From a phage, in sequence record PZ386956.1: a stretch of 53,024 bases of DNA, one strand, 5' to 3'. A model generated the notes under the pieces. The model did no database searches. It saw only the letters and a program-made list of their open reading frames with translations, and was not told the origin of the DNA. How positions within the stretch are numbered: the first letter of the stretch is position 1; every line of letters starts with the position of its first letter. Shown here one piece after another: positions 30,415 to 47,569 of this stretch. The position numbers were made by a program, and so were the translations under genes.

Positions 30415-31007
30415 TAAAACAGTTCCTTTTGAGCCGGGTTAACGTGTGCGTCGATAATGGCCTGAATGTCAGGTGCTTTCCATCCTTCAGGCTTAACAAT
30501 ATCCTGACCAGACTTATGCTTACTATTGCTTGCATCAGGCTTAGCGCGTTCTTTCGCCATGTTAGCAGCCTGTACCGCATCCCATGCGGCGTCAAGTGGC
30601 CAGTTGTTGTTTGCACACCAGGTAATCAGGTGGATAATTAACTGGGCCAGACGGTCGCAATGAGTGTCTTCAGTATCCTTAACGTATACGATAAGACCTT
30701 CAGCATCAAAGCGGTCCATAAATCCGCATGGCGTAGTCAACAGAATCGGATACTCAAATTCGTTGGTGAACCATGCTGTCTGGTCATACAGGTATAACGT
30801 ACCTGCAGCAATATAGATTAAGTCTACAATACCATCTAAGAATCCAGCTTTATCGCCTTCCTTCTTAGCTTGTTTAATTTCATCCATCTCCTCAATAAGA
30901 CGGTCATAGCGAAGCTTGAACTCTGGCTTACCGCCCTGGCTAATGGGCTTGAGGTCAAACTTCTCGTGGAAAGCTGTAACACCTGCAGCAATTTTACTGA
31001 ATCGCAT
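30414..31007 (-). CDS. MazG-like nucleotide pyrophosphohydrolase (putative)
   Basis: 197 aa, all-alpha with acidic EExxE-type cluster (RLIEEMDEIKQAKKEGD); start overlaps ThyA-like gene; assignment tentative. Confidence 0.4.
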   Translation of the reverse strand: MRFSKIAAGVTAFHEKFDLKPISQGGKPEFKLRYDRLIEEMDEIKQAKKEGDKAGFLDGIVDLIYIAAGTLYLYDQTAWFTNEFEYPILLTTPCGFMDRFDAEGLIVYVKDTEDTHCDRLAQLIIHLITWCANNNWPLDAAWDAVQAANMAKERAKPDASNSKHKSGQDIVKPEGWKAPDIQAIIDAHVNPAQKELF

Positions 31008-31392
31008 TTCTTAACTCCTTACAAACAGTTTCGATAAACTTACGTTTTGTTTCAGTAGACCAGATTATATGTCGGGCCTTCTCTAATACGTCCCAACGGT
31101 CTTTACCCACAGGAAAGGGGACAATGAAGAGGCCGGTGCGAGATATACGCTTGATAAACGGGAACTTGCAACGCATGGTTGTTTCAAATTTGATAAAGTT
31201 ATTTTGCGCTTCGCGTGTAAATTTAACCTTATCAAATTCATGCTCGAGTGTTTGAGCAAGGTTGCATACCTCATGGAAAGAGGATGCAGGCAGGTAGTCT
31301 TCACGACCGACAGTGTTTACGTAGTCAATTTGGCCTTCAAGACGAAGTATCCAAATTCTATAATAAGCTTCAGCGACACGTTGTAGATTCAT
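30994..31392 (-). CDS. hypothetical protein
   Basis: 132-aa ORF, first gene downstream of a promoter/terminator pair. Confidence 0.5.
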   Translation of the reverse strand: MNLQRVAEAYYRIWILRLEGQIDYVNTVGREDYLPASSFHEVCNLAQTLEHEFDKVKFTREAQNNFIKFETTMRCKFPFIKRISRTGLFIVPFPVGKDRWDVLEKARHIIWSTETKRKFIETVCKELRNAIQ

Positions 31393-31418
31393 TGTATCTC
31401 TCCTCTAAAAGATAACTT

Positions 31419-31447
31419 ATTATACCACATCACTCTCTAGTGGTAAA
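31419..31447 (-). promoter_or_regulatory. promoter TTTACC-N17-TATAAT with extended -10 and internal palindrome
   Basis: On minus strand: TTTACCACtagagagtgatgTGGTATAAT; ACCAC/GTGGT arms span the spacer. Confidence 0.45.
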
Positions 31448-31472
31448 GCACTTTTTATGCTTCGGGTAAAAT

Positions 31473-31502
31473 AAAAAGGACCAGCGTTAACTGGTCCTTT
31501 TG
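31473..31502. terminator. bidirectional rho-independent terminator
   Basis: AAAAA-GGACCAG-cgttaa-CTGGTCC-TTTT: 7-bp GC stem flanked by A-run and T-run, so it terminates in either orientation. Confidence 0.6.
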
Positions 31503-31552
31503 GCAGGGTGGCGTAAGGAGATACAAGGAATCGCAGTTATGCAACCAGGCAG

Positions 31553-31641
31553 CGCATATGAGATTGGCTAAAGGACTTACCGACTTAGTCCCCGCGACGA
31601 GTCAGAAAGGAGGTACCGTCAAGTAGCCAATCGCATATGCG
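31553..31641. repeat. long stem-loop element 1 (18-bp inverted repeat, 1 mismatch, ~53-nt loop)
   Basis: cGCATATGaGATTGGCTA ... TAGCCAATCgCATATGCg; loop contains nested hairpin GGACT-taccgact-tAGTCC. Confidence 0.6.
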
Positions 31642-31642
31642 T

Positions 31643-31727
31643 TACTTGCTGTGTGCTCTTACCACATGAAAAGTATATAGCGTTACACTTATCACACAGT
31701 TGTAGTGGCAAAAGCACACAGCGAGTA
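31643..31727. repeat. long stem-loop element 2 (15-bp inverted repeat with one G-T pair, 55-nt loop)
   Basis: TACTTGCTGTGTGCT ... AGCACACAGCGAGTA; inner 10 bp perfect. Confidence 0.6.
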
Positions 31728-31732
31728 CAACC

Positions 31733-31819
31733 TTAGTTGTGGTGTCTTAGCACCTGAGTTACTGTGGATAACCTGCACCCGACGGGTGTCAAAAAGATAC
31801 GCCAAAACACCACAACTAA
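31733..31819. repeat. long stem-loop element 3 (13-bp perfect inverted repeat, 61-nt loop)
   Basis: TTAGTTGTGGTGT ... ACACCACAACTAA; loop contains hairpin CACCCG-a-CGGGTG; followed by 12-bp palindrome CCAGGCGCCTGG (31840-31851). Confidence 0.6.
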
Positions 31820-32070
31820 AATTGTGACCGCCGTCTACACCAGGCGCCTGGGGTCAAGGTAGCGAGCCAATACCCTTTTCAGCGTTGGAGGAATCGAACC
31901 TCACACATCACGGCTTTTACCAAATCTCGGTCAGCGAGCAGAATTGAACTGCATTCACTGGACACCCTCACTGTTTCAACACACCAGGCTTAATTGATTG
32001 TTGATAAGAAGAGAGATGTAAGGATGTCCATTGAATGCACCTCCGTAGAGGTGCGTTCAGATCAGCGCTA

Positions 32071-32538
32071 TTATTCAGCGACTTCTTCGTTGTCGCCTTC
32101 GATCGCGCCAGCCAGTTTAGCAGCTTCAGCTTTAGCAGCTTCTGCTTTCTGGCGAGCTTTTTCAGCTTTCTCTTCAGCTTTGCGGATCTGCTCAGCAGCT
32201 TTCGCTTCGGCTTTTTCAGCTTTGATGCGAGCACGCTCTTCAGCTTTACGCTGTTTTTCAGCGGCTTTAGCAGCATCGCGTTCTGCTTTAGCGGTATCAA
32301 CACGCTTAGCCAGAACTTTACCAGTGGCTTTACGCCAGTAGGTCAGCTGGGAAGAAACAGTACCACGGGACATTTCGGTAGTGGCAACAACTTCGTCCAT
32401 AACGTCAGAGCTGGACTTGCCTTCTTCGTGGGCTTTGTCAGCCAGGTCCCATACATAACGTGCGCCAGTACCAGCTGCCGGATACAGTACGCCGTTAACT
32501 TCTTCTTTACCAGTTACAAAAGTCAGTTTCTCGCTCAT
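32071..32538 (-). CDS. Lys/Ala-rich histone-H1-like DNA-binding protein (putative)
   Basis: Start ATG 32538 (GAGG RBS); C-terminal 70 aa is an AKAE/KAEE low-complexity basic tract. Confidence 0.5.
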   Translation of the reverse strand: MSEKLTFVTGKEEVNGVLYPAAGTGARYVWDLADKAHEEGKSSSDVMDEVVATTEMSRGTVSSQLTYWRKATGKVLAKRVDTAKAERDAAKAAEKQRKAEERARIKAEKAEAKAAEQIRKAEEKAEKARQKAEAAKAEAAKLAGAIEGDNEEVAE

Positions 32539-32586
32539 AATTTTTTCCTCGTCTACAGGGCTTAATGTTTGTTCGTTACGTGAGTT

Positions 32587-32615
32587 AATATACGTCATTT
32601 AAAAGAGTGTGTAAA
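32587..32615 (-). promoter_or_regulatory. promoter TTTACA-N17-TATATT
   Basis: Minus strand TTTACAcactcttttaaatgacgTATATT about 45 nt upstream of the KA-rich gene start. Confidence 0.4.
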
Positions 32616-32644: not shown

Positions 32645-32866
32645 CTAGAAAGGCACATCATAGTCAAAAAGTTTACATCCGGAAGACAGGACTGCCGGCG
32701 GTGGTGTTTTGCCTCCGGATAATAGACAGCCTCCTGCCTGGAAGCTACGGCAGTTCGCACAGCTCATATCCTGCAGGTATATAATAAGCTGCCGGCGAAC
32801 GTGCCGCGGTAAAGCTTTAGCCTGGGTTGCTACCCGTTCAAATAGTTCTCTGTCATCGAGCGCCAT
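32645..32866 (-). CDS. small Cys-containing hypothetical protein
   Basis: 73-aa ORF overlapping helicase stop by 14 nt; CANC...GGC...GC motif; weak. Confidence 0.3.
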   Translation of the reverse strand: MALDDRELFERVATQAKALPRHVRRQLIIYLQDMSCANCRSFQAGGCLLSGGKTPPPAVLSSGCKLFDYDVPF

Positions 32867-34523
32867 ATCCGTTTCCCCAGTCGTAGTTCATGATTTGTGG
32901 GTAGGGTCGTTTAATCCATACCTTGATACGCTTAGGAATGGCCAGCTCACCCTTACGGCGAATAAACTCATCGCATGTTTCAGGCGGTTCTGTTCCTGCA
33001 GCATTACGCCACCAGGCATCTGCCATTTGTTTAGCATTGCCATGGGCCTCTATATTTACCCATGTTGTATACACTTCCAGGTTTGAGTAGTACACAACCT
33101 TTATACTGTCAGGTCGTCCCTGCTTCTGGAATAAAGAATAGTTTACCAGCGTAACATCTTTATCCACAACACGAAGCTGACCATTAGTCATTACCTCTTC
33201 TTCTGACGAAGTGAATGCAATAGCAGGTCCGTTAACTGTAAATTCAAATTCATGTCCGCACATCGGATATACACCATTCTCGTCTGGCGTACTTCCTTTA
33301 GCCGGATGTTTACACGTACGAGCAGCATAGCCACTTACCTGGTGACAGATAGGGCACTCTTTACCACCAGGCGTTTTCTCTGACCGTTTCTTTTTCTTCT
33401 TACCAAGACGTGGCGGAACAGCCGGGTCGTCAATAGGTCCAAGGTCAATGGTATTAGATGTAAAGTCCATGACAAGACAGTCATGCTTGCCAGGCGCTGT
33501 ACGTAATCCTCGACCGAGTATCTGCACCCACAAAGCAACGGACGTGGACGGGCGCAAGATGCCGAGCATATCAATCTCAGGATAGTCAAATCCTGTCGTC
33601 AATACGTTTACGTTTACACAGACTCGCGCTCGTCCGCTTGTAAACTCTTCCAGTGCGGCTTCACGTTCTTTCTTTGTAAGACCGCCATGCACAACTACAG
33701 TCTGCCACCCTCGCAGATTAAATTCGTCTGCTATGTTGTGGGCGTGCTCAACACTTGTGGCAAATACAAGAACGTGGTTCCTGTCTTTACCGTAGTGCAT
33801 CATCTCACGAATAGCCGCGACTGTTATACTATGCTGGTTGGCTACCTTCTCAAGCTCTGACGGAATGTAGTCACCCATCCTTTCGCCAACATTACTGGTG
33901 TCAATCTTGGTTAACACTTTCTTGTTGACCAGGCGCGACAGGAAGCCTTCATTTACCAGTCTGGTGAATGCGTCAGGTGTTGTAAGGTCGTAGCAGATGT
34001 CGGTAAATATACCACAGTCCAGCAAGTGACCACCTGCCAGGCGGTACGGAGTTGCTGTGAGTCCTGTTACCTTTACCTTAGGATTAAGCTCTTTGAAGTG
34101 AGCAATAACCTTACGGTATGTTGTTTCAGACTTCTCAGGAACAAGATGGGCTTCGTCAATGAATATAAGATTGAACTTACCTGCTTCTTCCAGGTTCTTA
34201 ATAATCGACTGTACTGACGCTACAACGATACGACCTGAAAAGTCTTTGTGTCCTGCGCCTGAAGAGTAGATAGATACGGGTGCTTGTGGCCAGTGGCGTA
34301 CAATCGCTTTGGCGTCTTGTTCTACCAGCTCCTTGACGTGTGTCAATATAAGAATGCGCTGACGGGGATAGCTGGTAAGAATATCCTTCATCAACATACC
34401 AAGCACAGGTGATTTACCTGAACCTGTCGGCATGACAATAAGTGGATTACCACTATAAGAATTGAAGTACGACCACCAAGCTGTGACCGCTTCTTGTTGA
34501 TACCAGCGAGCTTCAAAAGCCAT
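32853..34523 (-). CDS. SF2 DEAH-box DNA helicase with C-terminal zinc ribbon
   Basis: 556 aa; motif I MPTGSGKS, motif II FIDEAHLV, TAT/ARG motifs; Lys-rich linker then CPICH...C..C. Confidence 0.85.
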   Translation of the reverse strand: MAFEARWYQQEAVTAWWSYFNSYSGNPLIVMPTGSGKSPVLGMLMKDILTSYPRQRILILTHVKELVEQDAKAIVRHWPQAPVSIYSSGAGHKDFSGRIVVASVQSIIKNLEEAGKFNLIFIDEAHLVPEKSETTYRKVIAHFKELNPKVKVTGLTATPYRLAGGHLLDCGIFTDICYDLTTPDAFTRLVNEGFLSRLVNKKVLTKIDTSNVGERMGDYIPSELEKVANQHSITVAAIREMMHYGKDRNHVLVFATSVEHAHNIADEFNLRGWQTVVVHGGLTKKEREAALEEFTSGRARVCVNVNVLTTGFDYPEIDMLGILRPSTSVALWVQILGRGLRTAPGKHDCLVMDFTSNTIDLGPIDDPAVPPRLGKKKKKRSEKTPGGKECPICHQVSGYAARTCKHPAKGSTPDENGVYPMCGHEFEFTVNGPAIAFTSSEEEVMTNGQLRVVDKDVTLVNYSLFQKQGRPDSIKVVYYSNLEVYTTWVNIEAHGNAKQMADAWWRNAAGTEPPETCDEFIRRKGELAIPKRIKVWIKRPYPQIMNYDWGNGYGAR

Positions 34524-41517: not shown

Positions 41518-41610
41518 TGGTTGTATCTCCTTAGCAGAATGTACGTTTATTATGTATATAAAGGAGGGGAAAGTAAATAGATATAAATGTATAAAATACA
41601 TAAAAGTCTA

Positions 41611-41640
41611 TTTACTCTGGTTTAATAACGTGTATATAAT
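41611..41640 (+). promoter_or_regulatory. promoter TTTACT-N18-TATAAT
   Basis: TTTACT 41611-41616 and TATAAT 41635-41640 in the divergent AT-rich region, upstream of the 41671 gene. Confidence 0.4.
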
Positions 41641-42003: not shown

Positions 42004-44512
42004 TATTCTCGGTCTGAAATACTTTAAGCCAGAAGGGATTCCCCAAGTCTTCAAAGATATGAAGCGCTGGGCTATCTTTGAGCTGACGTACGAAGACGAG
42101 ACCCTCGAAGTTCAATCCAAACCTAAGAAACCTGCAAGAGCGCCATCAGGCCGTTCCTTCAGCACAACAGTGCCTGAAGAGTGGATGACTTTCGACGACG
42201 CCCTGACACGTTGTATCCGCAATCGTGAAATGAAGATTAAAGCTGTACAGGGTAACATCACCTTTGTGCCGGCTTTGATTGTTCCTCGCCAGTGGTACTT
42301 TGTTGACCTGGACAACCATGATGATAATCCAGACATTGAAGCTACCCACAAAGCGATAATTGAGGGGACTCGTGGCGCTTATGCTGAGACGTCAATCTCC
42401 GGCAAAGGGCAACACATTGCAATCCCTTTACCCTGGACTGCAGCAACATCCAAAGAGAAAGACGAACAGCTGGACATCAAAATCCAGAAGGCTGAGATGT
42501 TCCTGGTAATGACAGGCAATGTATTGAGCGAGTTCAATGCTAATCCTGTTTCAGCCCGTGAATGGCATGCAGCAATTGAGAAGTTCTTTCTTGAATCAAG
42601 CGCACCTGACATTGATGTTGAGTTTGAGCAAGACGAAGACCGTGGCGAAGAGTATGACAAAGAGCTATACGAACAGTTAGCCGACAATACTCGCTGGGCG
42701 CTTGAACATTATCTTAGCGACTATGCACCAGACGGTGTTGGTGTGAGTAATGACGGTTCCGAACGTTTAAGCCGCATACTCAAAGACTTGCTTCGTGTAA
42801 CCCGTAACTATGAAGTTACACAACGCATCTTCATGGCCAGCAAAGCTGCAGCATATGAAGGCCGCAGACCAAGTCGACATAACCTGTCTGTTGATAAGTA
42901 TCATCAGTGGTTCAGTCGTGTCGGTAAGACTGTGCTGAAAGAGATGCAACGTGACGGCTTATTCGTTAAGACCAAGTTTGCTCTTGACATCAACAAAGAG
43001 TTAGCCAAGAATTCAGGTGTCTCCCTGGCTGAGAACGTTGAGTTCAAGGTCAACGACGACATTCTGCCTTCTGATGTATTCGTCAGGACGGCCCCGTCCG
43101 GGTTTAAACGGCTTATTGCTGAGATACAGGATAACATATCTCCTGCTAACAGGGTTAACGACTATGCCATCGGCACAGCTCTTAACATCCTGAGCAACTG
43201 CGCCGGTCGCAAGTATGTTTGTCCAGTAGGTGGTCATGCTAACTTCCTGGTAACCAACATCATTCTTGTGGGTGGTTCATCAATCGGTAAATCCCTGTAT
43301 ACCGAAATGTTCCCACAAATCCAGGCAAGTTTACCTGACACATCACCTATCAGCCTTAACCGTATCCCAAGGGAACAGACTTTTGCAACCAGGACGTTTG
43401 CTGAACTGATGTCCAACCCGTCATACCATTCAGTTCAGTTGTTCTATCCTGAATTTGGTCTGGCTTTAGGTTCAGGCTTACGCATGAATCCTAACAACCC
43501 GGACAACTTTCAGAAAGCTCTGATGGACGCTTCAACCAAGCGTAAGGTTGGCGGTATACTGACAGGTATCAAACGTGCTAATGCTGACAATGATGTTAAG
43601 ACTGTAAGCGAACCGTGCTACTCTATCCTGGGTGACTCAACTCAAGAGCTTATCCTTGACAACACCCGGAAGCAAGACTTCTCAAGTGGCTTTTTGCCCC
43701 GCTTCCTGTTCATCCCGAACTATGAGCGAGCGGAGTTTGCCAAACCTGAGAAAGTAGGACGTCGCCAGCAGATTCGCCGTACATCCTTTTCAAAGGAGCT
43801 GATTGAGAAGCTGGAAGCAATCGCTTATGTGAATGCTATCCCGCCTAACGGTAAACTAAGGCATGACCCGATTCCTATTTACGACGAATCGGATGATGAC
43901 GACTTCCTGTACGAGTACCAGTGCAATATTAATGACATGCGCCAGTATTACAGGGACAACGAAGTAGCATCCGCCTTTGTGGGCCGAATGGGTGAGTATG
44001 TATTCAACATAGCAGCACTGATTGGTTTACTCGACAACTGGGATGCTCCTGTAATGACCAGGGACAACATTGAATGGGCTTACAAATACGTTCTTCGCTG
44101 TATAACCGCCTGGGTCAATAACACAAGCAGAATAGTCGCACCTCCGACTACCAACGCCGAAGTAGTGGACGGCTTCCTCAAAGTCTACAGGGACATTTTG
44201 GCCCTTTACACCAAAAGAGGCTGGAACGGTATTGTTAAGCATTATCCTGAAGGTGTTGTAAGAAGCTTACGGGAAGACCATCTGAAAATGAACGGGCTTA
44301 GCATATATGCTATCCGGCAATCATTAAGTTGGTTCAAGTCCAATTATGGCTTTAACATAACCGCTAATAACAAGGTTATTGACGGTATGTTGCAGGATAT
44401 GATTGACCAGGACTATTTAGCAGTCCAAATATACAAACCCACAAGAGGTAAATCGGCAAATATCTACTGTTTAACTGAACGGGGATACGACGAAGCCAAG
44501 AAACTTAAGTAA
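41978..44512 (+). CDS. DNA primase-helicase (AEP prim-pol domain fused to SF3/D5-type helicase)
   Basis: 844 aa; N-terminal AEP motifs (FVDLDNHD with DxD; SGKGQHIAI with His), C-terminal P-loop VGGSSIGKS. Confidence 0.8.
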   Translation: MTMTSQPSDILGLKYFKPEGIPQVFKDMKRWAIFELTYEDETLEVQSKPKKPARAPSGRSFSTTVPEEWMTFDDALTRCIRNREMKIKAVQGNITFVPALIVPRQWYFVDLDNHDDNPDIEATHKAIIEGTRGAYAETSISGKGQHIAIPLPWTAATSKEKDEQLDIKIQKAEMFLVMTGNVLSEFNANPVSAREWHAAIEKFFLESSAPDIDVEFEQDEDRGEEYDKELYEQLADNTRWALEHYLSDYAPDGVGVSNDGSERLSRILKDLLRVTRNYEVTQRIFMASKAAAYEGRRPSRHNLSVDKYHQWFSRVGKTVLKEMQRDGLFVKTKFALDINKELAKNSGVSLAENVEFKVNDDILPSDVFVRTAPSGFKRLIAEIQDNISPANRVNDYAIGTALNILSNCAGRKYVCPVGGHANFLVTNIILVGGSSIGKSLYTEMFPQIQASLPDTSPISLNRIPREQTFATRTFAELMSNPSYHSVQLFYPEFGLALGSGLRMNPNNPDNFQKALMDASTKRKVGGILTGIKRANADNDVKTVSEPCYSILGDSTQELILDNTRKQDFSSGFLPRFLFIPNYERAEFAKPEKVGRRQQIRRTSFSKELIEKLEAIAYVNAIPPNGKLRHDPIPIYDESDDDDFLYEYQCNINDMRQYYRDNEVASAFVGRMGEYVFNIAALIGLLDNWDAPVMTRDNIEWAYKYVLRCITAWVNNTSRIVAPPTTNAEVVDGFLKVYRDILALYTKRGWNGIVKHYPEGVVRSLREDHLKMNGLSIYAIRQSLSWFKSNYGFNITANNKVIDGMLQDMIDQDYLAVQIYKPTRGKSANIYCLTERGYDEAKKLK

Positions 44513-44516
44513 AATC

Positions 44517-44566
44517 AAGGGCTTATGTAGTAAAATACGTAAGCCCTTATTTTATATACTCTTTTT
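44517..44566 (+). terminator. terminator-like hairpin after primase-helicase gene
   Basis: AAGGGCTTA-(14 nt)-TAAGCCCTT followed by T-rich ATTTTATATACTCTTTTT. Confidence 0.45.
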
Positions 44567-47327: not shown

Positions 47328-47353
47328 GTTTCTCTCTCCTATTGATATAATTT

Positions 47354-47394
47354 CAATCATGAACTATCACAACTTTGGATAGTTCATTGTTGAA
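47354..47394 (-). repeat. conserved intergenic hairpin, copy 2 (compensatory stem)
   Basis: CAATCATGA-ACTATC-acaacttt-GGATAGTT-CATTGTTGAA: same flanks as copies 1 and 3 but a different, still complementary, stem. Confidence 0.55.
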
Positions 47395-47395
47395 A

Positions 47396-47569
47396 CTATA
47401 CTAACTTTGTTGCGATCTGAATTGTCAGCCGGAAATCTTCCATCAAGTTATCAAACTCTTTGGAACCGCCAACCGCATCAGATATTTGATCTTTCACGAT
47501 TTGGGCATTTGATTCCAGTAATTCAATCAGGTGCGCCAATTCGTCTTCAGTCAATTTCAGATCTTTCAT
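47396..47569 (-). CDS. hypothetical protein
   Basis: Start ATG 47569 overlapping upstream stop (ATGA); 57 aa. Confidence 0.4.
   Translation of the reverse strand: MKDLKLTEDELAHLIELLESNAQIVKDQISDAVGGSKEFDNLMEDFRLTIQIATKLV

Follow-up and report, generated by a model that had tools for sequence, protein, structure and literature searches.

The genome of a Rosemountvirus-type myophage (sequence record PZ386956.1) carries a non-coding array of structured elements on its minus strand, at about 31506-32070. The window, that is the whole stretch of 53,024 nucleotides (nt) that we analysed, is essentially the complete genome. Within this array lies a unit of about 135 nt, here named X, which comparison of sequences and predicted structures identifies as a well-supported and apparently undescribed phage RNA family. 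The same comparison shows that the region holds predicted modular RNA structures of the minus strand in a transfer RNA (tRNA) slot, and that X is a conserved element associated with tRNA arrays, with two putative T-loops and two GG motifs. In our view the array is probably a co-transcribed, processed set of stable RNAs occupying the tRNA slot, in which X would be a mimic of the tRNA elbow. An initial annotation, made from the letters of the window, had drawn attention to three consecutive long hairpins here (elements 1, 2 and 3). It had overlooked a fourth long hairpin (31950-32039, 22-nt arms) and the T-loop RNA unit at 31816-31959, which contains a palindrome that it had listed. The elements of the array are the following, in the order in which the minus strand is read.

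32032-32059, minus strand: hairpin P0 (UGAACGCACCUC-UACG-GAGGUGCAUUCA), directly after the stop codon of the KA-rich protein gene
31950-32039, minus strand: hairpin A, with 22-nt arms and a 12-base pair (bp) core stem (GGACAUCCUUAC/GUGAGGGUGUCC) extendable to 22 bp
31816-31959, minus strand: unit X, about 135 nt, between hairpin A and element 3; matched by covariance model R1
31938-31952, minus strand: P1 of X, T-loop hairpin GCAG-UUCAAUU-CUGC, followed by UCGC
31929-31933 and 31825-31829, minus strand: P2 of X, UGACC/GGUCA
31915-31928, minus strand: internal loop of X, GAGAUUUGGUAAAA, 14 nt, D-loop-like
31910-31914 and 31830-31834, minus strand: P3 of X, GCCGU/ACGGC
31888-31902, minus strand: P4 of X, T-loop hairpin GAGG-UUCGAUU-CCUC
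31840-31851, minus strand: palindrome CCAGGCGCCUGG, in a lineage-specific insertion of X; overlaps CUGGUG
31838-31843, minus strand: CUGGUG, the second UGGU motif of X, near its 3' side
31726-31826, minus strand: element 3, a hairpin of about 100 nt with a G-U-rich closing stem of 20-25 bp and two apical hairpins
31646-31726, minus strand: element 2, a hairpin of about 80 nt with a closing stem of 18-22 bp and the conserved apical region GUGAUAAGUGUAACGCUAUAUACUU
31550-31646, minus strand: element 1, a hairpin of about 90 nt with an 18-bp stem (one mismatch) and ACCUCCUUU in its loop

Unit X is a conserved phage RNA family

Read along the minus strand, the 5' part of X is GAAU-GCAG-UUCAAUU-CUGC-UCGC-UGACC-GAGAUUUGGUAAAA-GCCGU, and the 3' part is GAGG-UUCGAUU-CCUC, then CUGGUG-UAG-ACGGC-GGUCA. 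Its layout brings together a pair of T-loop hairpins, P1 and P4, with two UGGU(A/G) motifs that resemble a D-loop and with the long-range helices P2 and P3, taken to be stacked, in which the 3' strand is continuous and the 5' strands are split by the 14-nt loop. The T-arm and D-loop GG features of the window copy (the two T-loop hairpins together with UUGGUA and CUGGUG) are partial only, and we therefore speak of a resemblance to tRNA and not of membership. Adopting the family structure costs the window copy 1.1 kcal/mol above the unconstrained minimum free energy.

A covariance model, R1, was built from six compact members of the family. It matches the window once, at 31816-31959 on the minus strand (66.9 bits, E 2.7e-12), and has no match in Erwinia phage SOI901, a distant relative. 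Searches for X in IMG/VR and in metagenomes used exact 19-20-mers. The 20-mer TCTGCTCGCTGRCCGAGATT occurs in 14 IMG/VR stretches and in 21 metagenome stretches, about half of the latter being chance matches in coding sequence and the rest true. Among 100,044 species genomes it was found twice, both times in contigs of metagenome-assembled genomes (MAGs). The first of these is a Rosemount-like phage; the second has no P1 hairpin and appears to match by chance. Cellular genomes are essentially devoid of X. When IMG/VR was scanned for the P1 hairpin, 65 stretches were recovered, and R1 matches 52 of the 54 new ones. The family now comprises 57 distinct phage contigs, with true matches in unrelated phages; these are phages of Enterobacteria, Bacteroidota and Alphaproteobacteria.

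Pairing is well kept across the 57 sequences. Bases are paired in 91.2% of the cells, and 15 of the 19 pairs show changes on both sides, values that none of 500 shuffles reached; sliding the 3' partners by 1-3 columns lowers pairing to 32-61%. P2 is paired in 90% (4 of 5 pairs covary) and P3 in 82% (5 of 5 pairs covary). P1 behaves differently: the 18-nt sequence GCAG-UUCRANU-CUGC plus UCG is near-invariant, being present in 56 of the 57 members, and the only stem variant (CCCG/CGGG, in Rhizobium phage RHph_I1_6) is doubly compensated. The P1 loops fit U-U-C-R-A-N-U in 55/57 members, the P4 loops mostly fit the T-loop consensus, and the GG of the internal loop, for which the family pattern is GAG-R-UU-GGUA, is present in 51/57. 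In the fHy-Eco03-type loci L004 and L008 the P4 T-loop reads UUGGAUU, with C replaced by G at loop position 3, and CUGGUG reads CUGCUUG, with G replaced by C. This single event may be a compensatory swap of a tertiary T-loop/GG pair.

Most members begin 4-5 nt past the 3' end of a tRNA encoded on the same strand. In 23 loci the tRNA at this distance was called by ARAGORN, with many isotypes represented, tRNA-Phe at IMG/VR locus L029 among them; a T-arm is visible upstream in many more, and at several loci a tRNA also directly follows X. Among cultured phages, X stands unannotated after tRNA-Cys in Cellulophaga phages phi19:3 and phi13:2 and after tRNA-Gln in the N4-like Rhizobium phage RHph_I1_6. 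The window copy has no upstream tRNA, and hairpin A sits in that place instead. Since loci L016, L023 and L048 likewise lack the upstream tRNA, adjacency to a tRNA is typical and not obligatory.

Outside the Rosemount group, many copies of X have a further conserved hairpin on the 3' side, UGAC-stem-GGAAAGAC-stem, which often lies immediately ahead of the next tRNA; examples are IMG/VR loci L058 (5557-5662), L071, L063, L108 and L025. The window copy is without this hairpin and ends in GGUCAcaaUUUU.

An all-against-all BLASTP comparison of open reading frames from 15 loci, with flanks of up to about 14 kb, gave no protein family common to unrelated X loci and thus no protein partner. A literature search that included exact sequence strings found no description of X or of the non-coding region.

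The long hairpins are probably selected as RNA on the minus strand

Elements 1 to 3 with their stems and loops, the palindrome and the terminator beyond them lie where the initial annotation had put them. Element 1 indeed has an 18-bp stem with one mismatch around a 53-nt interior (arms 31553-31570 and 31624-31641), and the 12-bp palindrome CCAGGCGCCTGG was found again at 31840-31851. The stem of element 2 was placed correctly and measured too short: instead of 15 bp it spans about 18-22 bp as RNA (arms within 31643-31665 and 31705-31727). In element 3 the perfect 13-bp core holds (31735-31747 and 31809-31821), and G-U pairs extend the stem to about 20-25 bp. The earlier judgement that such regularity goes beyond chance is borne out by the window as a whole, where no more than 15 inverted repeats reach an arm length of 14 nt or more with the two arms within 90 nt of each other; the longest three are elements 1-3, which are adjacent and occupy 31546-31834.

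Single-sequence folding against dinucleotide shuffles gave z-scores of -5.6, -7.4 and -6.9 for elements 1, 2 and 3 on the minus strand, none of 200 shuffles being equally stable. The two strands differ. Element 2 folds at -40.0 kcal/mol on the minus strand versus -26.8 on the plus strand, and element 3 at -46.4 versus -32.7. For hairpin A, element 2 and element 3 the gene-sense fold is the more stable one in every homolog examined (11 of 11 for hairpin A); for element 1 this holds in 6 of 7, the exception being the copy in the window. The plus-strand versions are less stable because many of the pairs are G-U. In phage yarpen two U-A pairs of element 3 became U-G, a change tolerated on the minus strand only.

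Relatives were also sought through the 132-amino acid (aa) protein encoded next to the array, and the IMG/VR scans brought one new clade only, L015. The comparison with related phages, which had been suggested as a check, did reveal compensatory stem changes between clades. The closing stems have no broken pairs, and they show fixed U-G or G-U pairs and compensatory double changes. This pairing is kept while the flanking 132-aa protein falls to about 40% identity between the most distant of the compared phages, which argues that the pairing is under selection, and on the minus strand. Sense-strand stability, fixed G-U pairs and compensatory changes together point to RNA structures, not DNA cruciforms.

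The individual hairpins differ in their distribution. Element 1 is confined to the Rosemountvirus clade. The stem of element 2 is kept in Rosemount- and Loughborough-type phages through U-G/G-U pairs and compensatory changes, its inner half having been rewritten between the two types. In element 3 all 20 stem pairs are kept in 8 sequences, 5 of them with changes on both sides; it follows X in the window and precedes X in fHy-Eco03-type phages. Other long hairpins stand at the equivalent place in L015 and SOI901. The loops are as conserved as the stems, as seen for GCAGGUUAUCCACAAUAAC in element 3 and for the apex of element 2. One of the apical hairpins of element 3 carries the invariant GGUUAUCCACA, and a perfect DnaA-box 9-mer at 31763-31771 (minus strand), TTATCCACA, lies in its apical hairpin and is invariant in every clade with element 3 (Rosemount-, Loughborough- and fHy-Eco03-type).

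Two other origins for the hairpins were considered and rejected. E. coli chromosomes contain no match, which speaks against host-derived repeats such as miniature inverted-repeat transposable elements (MITEs), and none of the three hairpins is a copy of another. As for decayed tRNAs, local alignment of elements 1-3 and hairpin A to the tRNAs of SOI901 was not significant (p ≥ 0.06).

Among eight clade representatives including SOI901 (5 clades) the core of hairpin A retains 12 of 12 pairs, 6 of them with changes on both sides and with U-G pairs fixed, and in the extended form 21 of 22 pairs are formed. The loop of this hairpin includes GCCUGGUG, and the GAAUGCA leader of X is part of its 3' arm. 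Hairpin A occupies the place that a tRNA holds upstream of X in other phages, and an AGUGAAU spacer follows. P0 is conserved in all clades, with both arms altered in SOI901 (GCCCCUC...GAGGGGC); no U-tract follows it, and so it is not an intrinsic terminator. The segment UGCAUUCA (32032-32039) can pair either with UGAACGCA (32052-32059, in P0) or with UGAAUGCA (31950-31957, the leader and first bases of P1 of X). With these two alternative partners, forming any one of P0, the extended hairpin A and P1 of X partly precludes the others. L015 and SOI901 show this arrangement too.

A natural deletion cuts through the array in phage rivia (L009), where about 145 nt aligned to window positions of about 31780-31922 are absent between two GGT triplets. 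The deletion runs from the GGU of the X internal loop to the GGU of the element 3 apex, and takes with it the 3' two-thirds of X and the 5' arm of element 3; the isolate is viable. Rivia, whose closest intact relative is yarpen, thereby offers a ready-made natural knockout.

CU-rich, anti-Shine-Dalgarno-like motifs accompany element 1. Its loop holds one of them (ACCUCCUUU, about 31600-31612, minus strand) that is conserved in all copies of the element, and UCUCCUUAC and UUCCUUG lie just ahead of the terminator (31506-31535) and are conserved alongside all copies. These motifs could pair with ribosome-binding sites.

Genomic setting of the array

The region is 99% identical to Salmonella phage emiel and 94-98% identical to BP63, yarpen, swi3 and others. 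The genes around the non-coding stretch are all on the minus strand; in that sense they and their predicted signals are as follows.

32853-34523, minus strand: helicase gene, first in the order
minus strand, between the helicase gene and the KA-rich protein gene: open reading frame (ORF) of 73 aa
32587-32615, minus strand: predicted sigma-70-like promoter (TTTACA-17-TATATT) from a consensus scan, upstream of the KA-rich protein gene
32071-32598, minus strand: KA-rich protein gene; mechanical ORF of 175 aa, probable start Met21; syntenic in all relatives
31474-31501, minus strand: strong intrinsic terminator with a 12-bp stem, a 4-nt loop and the tail UAUUUU, flanked by A and T runs
31419-31447, minus strand: predicted promoter (TTTACC-17-TATAAT, extended -10 TG), near-consensus, for the downstream nucleotide-metabolism genes
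30994-31392, minus strand: gene of the 132-aa protein, past the non-coding stretch
minus strand, beyond the gene of the 132-aa protein: genes of a nucleoside triphosphate (NTP) pyrophosphohydrolase and then of thymidylate synthase

Searches of Pfam and PHROGs for the function of the neighbouring proteins yielded matches of unknown function only. PHROG 28664 covers just residues 21-175 of the KA-rich ORF, and homologs cover the same residues, which places the start codon downstream of the promoter site at 32587-32615; the upstream part of the 175-aa ORF, at 32538-32598, is overlapped by this promoter-like site. The stem-loop at 31474-31501 has the GC-rich stem and U-tract of an intrinsic terminator. 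Its bidirectional shape, with A and T runs on both sides, agrees with what had been noted before, and it is kept in all clades with compensatory changes (CCAG..CUGG versus CCUG..CAGG). The promoter at 31419-31447 is nearly invariant in all clades and is annotated in BP63 and S144; by its predicted position it marks the end of the non-coding unit. On the plus strand the consensus scan gave no convincing promoter inside the non-coding stretch. Given a promoter and a gene upstream, then the array, then a terminator, we infer that the array is the 3' part of the transcript of the KA-rich protein gene.

The gap itself has a telling counterpart in SOI901. Gene order matches, and the equivalent gap holds tRNA-Pro(UGG) and tRNA-Gln(UUG) on the same strand. 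A covarying copy of hairpin A precedes these tRNAs, and another long hairpin, then the same terminator and promoter, follow. The tRNA pair in this syntenic gap leads us to regard the locus as a tRNA slot.

The initial annotation had described the region as free of ORFs of at least 60 aa on either strand. This holds for about 31416-31967 only: three mechanical ORFs of 111-176 aa reach into 31968-32070 (31968-32303 on the minus strand, 31994-32341 and 32035-32565 on the plus strand). They are probably spurious, being alternative-frame or antisense readings of the repetitive KA-rich gene.

Several database records merit a comment. GenBank entries (MT012730, MT663719, PP856723 and others) place 2-5 mutually inconsistent 'hypothetical proteins' of 29-40 aa on the RNA locus, and the SE4 and ZCSE2 records annotate a plus-strand ORF of about 100 aa there. 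The phage region is also present at 94-99% identity in PP583539.1, NZ_CP067310.1, NZ_JBVNBN010000003.1 and JAEWER010000021.1; among these four, one is labelled 'Listeria phage', two are 53-kb RefSeq E. coli 'plasmids' and one is a 'Bacillota' MAG contig. Mislabelled hosts, phage genomes deposited as plasmids and mis-binning are probably responsible. Elsewhere in the window, the part at 44-50 kb is AT-rich (GC 0.39-0.43 versus about 0.47) with an irregular GC skew and several long near-perfect palindromes; palindrome-bearing spots lie at 41572-41616, 44512-44553 and 47346-47400. This part would be a better candidate for an origin or early regulatory region than the 31.5-32 kb region.

A possible tRNA-elbow mimic and the alternatives

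How could such an array work? A minus-strand transcript would start at the promoter near 32615, run through the KA-rich protein gene and the non-coding array, and end at the terminator at 31501-31474. In X, each T-loop may dock onto a UGGU(A/G) segment as in the tRNA elbow, and host tRNA-processing enzymes might cut X from the precursor, as with T4 RNAs C and D. Hairpin A could replace the upstream tRNA as the 5' processing determinant; we see it as a tRNA stand-in because its core, at 12 bp, is as long as the acceptor and T helices of a tRNA when stacked, because GCCUGGUG stands in its loop and because its 3' arm leads into GAAUGCA. The hairpins of about 20 bp might be processing or protective modules of the RNase III type, or stable small RNAs (sRNAs). 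The near-invariance of P1 across phages of three bacterial phyla, with no phage protein in common, suggests a universal host component that reads tRNA shape. Our leading guess for the target of X is a host elbow reader, for example RNase P, RNase Z/BN, the CCA-adding enzyme, the ribosome or a tRNA-directed defence nuclease. The suggestion in the initial annotation of a cluster of structured small RNAs is thus backed by strand-specific G-U pairing, compensatory changes, placement between promoter and terminator, tRNA synteny and a family member that is found next to tRNAs.

More tentatively, X might represent a new class of phage RNA active in tRNA biology, either a ribozyme or cofactor for tRNA 3' maturation or a double-elbow decoy. 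As a ribozyme or cofactor it would dock onto the neighbouring tRNA or onto host tRNA-processing enzymes, and would be a structural alternative to theta ribozymes; as a decoy it would titrate a host factor or an anti-phage tRNA nuclease. If X is active in trans, its retention in the tRNA-less Rosemount-type phages could be explained by that activity, and the long hairpins might be further anti-host RNAs.

Several points weigh against a set of processed stable RNAs with an elbow mimic among them. The covariation in X was counted on alignments that had been fitted to the model and so lean towards it. Because P1 hardly varies, its helix is supported mainly by analogy with a T-arm. The window copy of X alone folds no more stably than its shuffles (z +0.79), and the docking of T-loop and GG is backed by a single possible tertiary swap, in the fHy-Eco03 type. 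The viability of rivia despite its deletion means that the RNAs are accessory at most, not essential. G-T pairs also form in single-stranded DNA (ssDNA), and strand asymmetry taken by itself therefore leaves room for a structure of minus-strand ssDNA. Finally, the published genome papers on this phage group state only 'no tRNA genes'.

Part of the same evidence would suit a purely cis-acting 3' untranslated region, in which the hairpins and X would serve the messenger RNA (mRNA) of the KA-rich protein and the neighbouring operon as signals for processing, stability or termination, in the manner of RNase III sites between T7 early genes, 3' protective stem-loops or retroregulation at lambda sib. 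The array has no promoter of its own and directly follows a gene; RNase III needs stems of about 20 bp, a size that the stems of about 20 bp fit. The mutual exclusivity of P0 and the extended hairpin A through UGCAUUCA resembles a regulatory switch, and the deletion in rivia is tolerated. Still, we consider this explanation unlikely, as the loops are conserved as strongly as the stems, which simple stability hairpins do not need, X sits in tRNA arrays of unrelated phages with no upstream mRNA to regulate, and the modules have been shuffled between clades while the flanking genes stayed fixed. Very improbable, in our opinion, is a DNA-level element, that is a cruciform or ssDNA fold serving as lytic origin, single-strand priming signal or packaging site, with the DnaA box recruiting DnaA. 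Its appeal lies in the perfect, invariant box TTATCCACA in element 3 and in the three long inverted repeats that adjoin helicase and nucleotide-metabolism genes; ssDNA hairpins with a DnaA box are known as primosome assembly sites (the R6K 'A site', G4-type origins). However, the G-U and U-G pairs correspond to A-C mismatches on the other strand, so that a cruciform with two arms would contain many mismatches. One perfect DnaA box and one with a single mismatch lie in the region; the genome has four perfect boxes, and its 19 boxes with at most one mismatch, against 13.5 expected, are no enrichment. There is neither a DnaA-box cluster nor an AT-rich unwinding element (GC 0.45), and the GC skew changes sign near 26 kb and not here. 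Moreover, rivia is viable without the 5' arm of element 3, half of that element, tRNA genes fill the slot in SOI901, and the RNA family of X is linked to tRNAs. The cruciform origin or packaging site that had been offered as one possibility finds no support in these observations.

The tRNA slot also invites the thought of a tRNA gene cluster in decay that no longer has a function. The syntenic tRNA-Pro/tRNA-Gln pair of SOI901, the T-arm-like hairpins, weak tRNA-like calls from relaxed ARAGORN (80% thresholds) and the resemblance of X to the SOI901 tRNA-Pro, across the T-arm only (p about 0.004), would all agree with it. Yet compensatory change keeps the structure across clades whose flanking protein is about 40% identical, which largely refutes decay, and 57 unrelated phage loci have an intact X under equal constraints. 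The relaxed ARAGORN calls differ from clade to clade, the hairpins do not resemble the syntenic tRNAs (p ≥ 0.06), and both default ARAGORN and the Rfam tRNA model are negative; we regard decay as highly improbable. A degenerate tRNA-like array, as the initial annotation had put it, is thus right as to the tRNA slot and the T-arm- and D-loop-like modules of X, and wrong as to the three hairpins of about 87 nt, which are unlike tRNA. Hardly any credence can be given to several very small proteins of about 30-40 aa encoded at the region. Several records do annotate 2-5 'hypothetical proteins' of 29-40 aa and mechanical minus-strand ORFs of 30-37 aa are present, but the annotated position, frame and even strand vary between close relatives, and the start codon is usually GTG or TTG. 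Between genomes more than 94% identical, indels of 1, 2 and 5 nt fall inside these ORFs, and substitutions obey the logic of base pairing, not that of codons.

X adds to the enigmatic RNAs already known beside phage tRNA genes (T4 RNAs C and D, GOLLD, ROOL and theta ribozymes) a compact and sharply defined family, with a near-invariant T-arm-like hairpin of 18 nt, two T-loops and strong covariation. Easily grown and widely used phages of Salmonella and E. coli (BP63, S144, swi3 and others), published as having 'no tRNA genes', carry X, and this opens the family to experiments in either host. Should X prove to be an elbow mimic, it could show which host machinery for reading tRNAs must be controlled by phages. 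Additionally, the annotation of the RNA locus can be corrected, with the removal of 2-5 spurious 'hypothetical proteins'.

Comparison with known RNA classes

Known families do not account for the array. The covariance-model scan that had been proposed, run against Rfam over the whole window at the gathering score, over the region at E ≤ 10 and over eight other X loci at the gathering score, returned only chance matches resembling microRNAs or sRNAs, and the flanking tRNAs; no known family was found at the region, and no Rfam 15 family matches X in the window or in the eight other loci. ARAGORN in default mode finds no tRNA or transfer-messenger RNA (tmRNA) genes in the window, and the Rfam tRNA model (RF00005) has no match over 31350-32150 even at E ≤ 10. 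Both tools do recover the true tRNAs in SOI901 and in other X loci. Relaxed ARAGORN searches (80% thresholds; intron, mitochondrial and tmRNA modes) gave weak calls that are inconsistent between clades, and tRNA identity was rejected. A tmRNA, whose tRNA-like domain has an acceptor stem with G3-U70 and a 3' CCA context and which carries a tag reading frame, was rejected as well, also in permuted form: ARAGORN makes 'tmRNAp' calls only at 80% thresholds and with nonsense tags, and the Rfam tmRNA models, including the permuted-form model said to be in Rfam 15, do not match.

X was also threaded by hand onto other folds. A fold of the hepatitis delta virus (HDV)-like or theta ribozyme type, a nested double pseudoknot (P1-P1.1-P2-P3-P4) that is cleaved at the 5' end of P1 and has a catalytic C in J4/2, leaves no 5' strands for its P1 and P2, and no HDV-like Rfam family matches; hammerhead, permuted-tRNA and permuted-tmRNA topologies were likewise rejected. 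RNase P-like motif resemblances (GCUGACC.../GGAAAG) are too weak to claim.

With GOLLD and ROOL, non-coding RNAs of phages and prophages that are 'often near tRNA islands' and sometimes have tRNAs embedded, the array of about 560 nt shares its setting and a similar size. Their covariance models do not match at the gathering score or at E ≤ 10. Since the modules are shuffled, gained and lost between clades, the array would consist of separate modules rather than one integrated fold, unlike GOLLD and ROOL.

Long irregular hairpins that are cut to stable RNAs are familiar from the RNase III hairpins of T7 early mRNA and from the RNase P-processed hairpin RNAs C4 of P1 and CI of P4. The stems here, of 12-22 bp, are in the same range. 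Measured against an RNase III substrate of at least 20 bp (about two turns) of nearly uninterrupted double-stranded RNA, the predicted pairing amounts to 21 of 22 pairs in the extended hairpin A, about 20-25 bp in element 3 and about 18-22 bp in element 2. There is no sequence relation to these systems, however, and three or four tandem hairpins in a 3' untranslated region are not the T7 arrangement.

Theta ribozymes are minimal HDV-like self-cleaving ribozymes found directly 3' of phage tRNAs, often after tRNAs with no encoded CCA, and they occur almost only in phages and rarely in bacterial genomes (Kienbeck et al. 2024, PMC10879173). Like them, X is a small structured RNA a few nt from a phage tRNA 3' end. 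It differs in that it starts with a hairpin about 4 nt past the tRNA, shows no catalytic-C J4/2 context that we could find and is about twice as long. Another precedent is a phage form of tmRNA with no coding sequence, which in mycobacteriophage DS6A inhibits the host tmRNA (PMC11915505). Its tRNA-like domain is, like X, a phage-borne T-arm and D-loop analogue with no anticodon arm, and it illustrates how a competitor may act; X has no acceptor end, no CCA and no Rfam tmRNA match.

This leaves the stable RNAs C and D of T4 (rnaC and rnaD, 'species 1 and 2 RNA'). No homology to X is detectable: with filters off, R1 gives a partial match of 9.6 bits (E 0.36) to the T-arm of rnaC. The T4 RNAs have tRNA-like ends (..CACCA in rnaD), whereas X has two T-loops and no CCA-like end. 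In other respects the likeness is considerable. The two RNAs measure about 120-140 nt and stand at the 3' end of a phage tRNA cluster, rnaD beginning 1 nt past tRNA-Arg and rnaC 6 nt past rnaD, and rnaC ends in a T-arm-like hairpin. Their release by tRNA-processing enzymes is presumed, as we propose for X. RNAs C and D have been unexplained for about 50 years; by analogy in size, position and presumed processing, they would be the closest known analogues of X.

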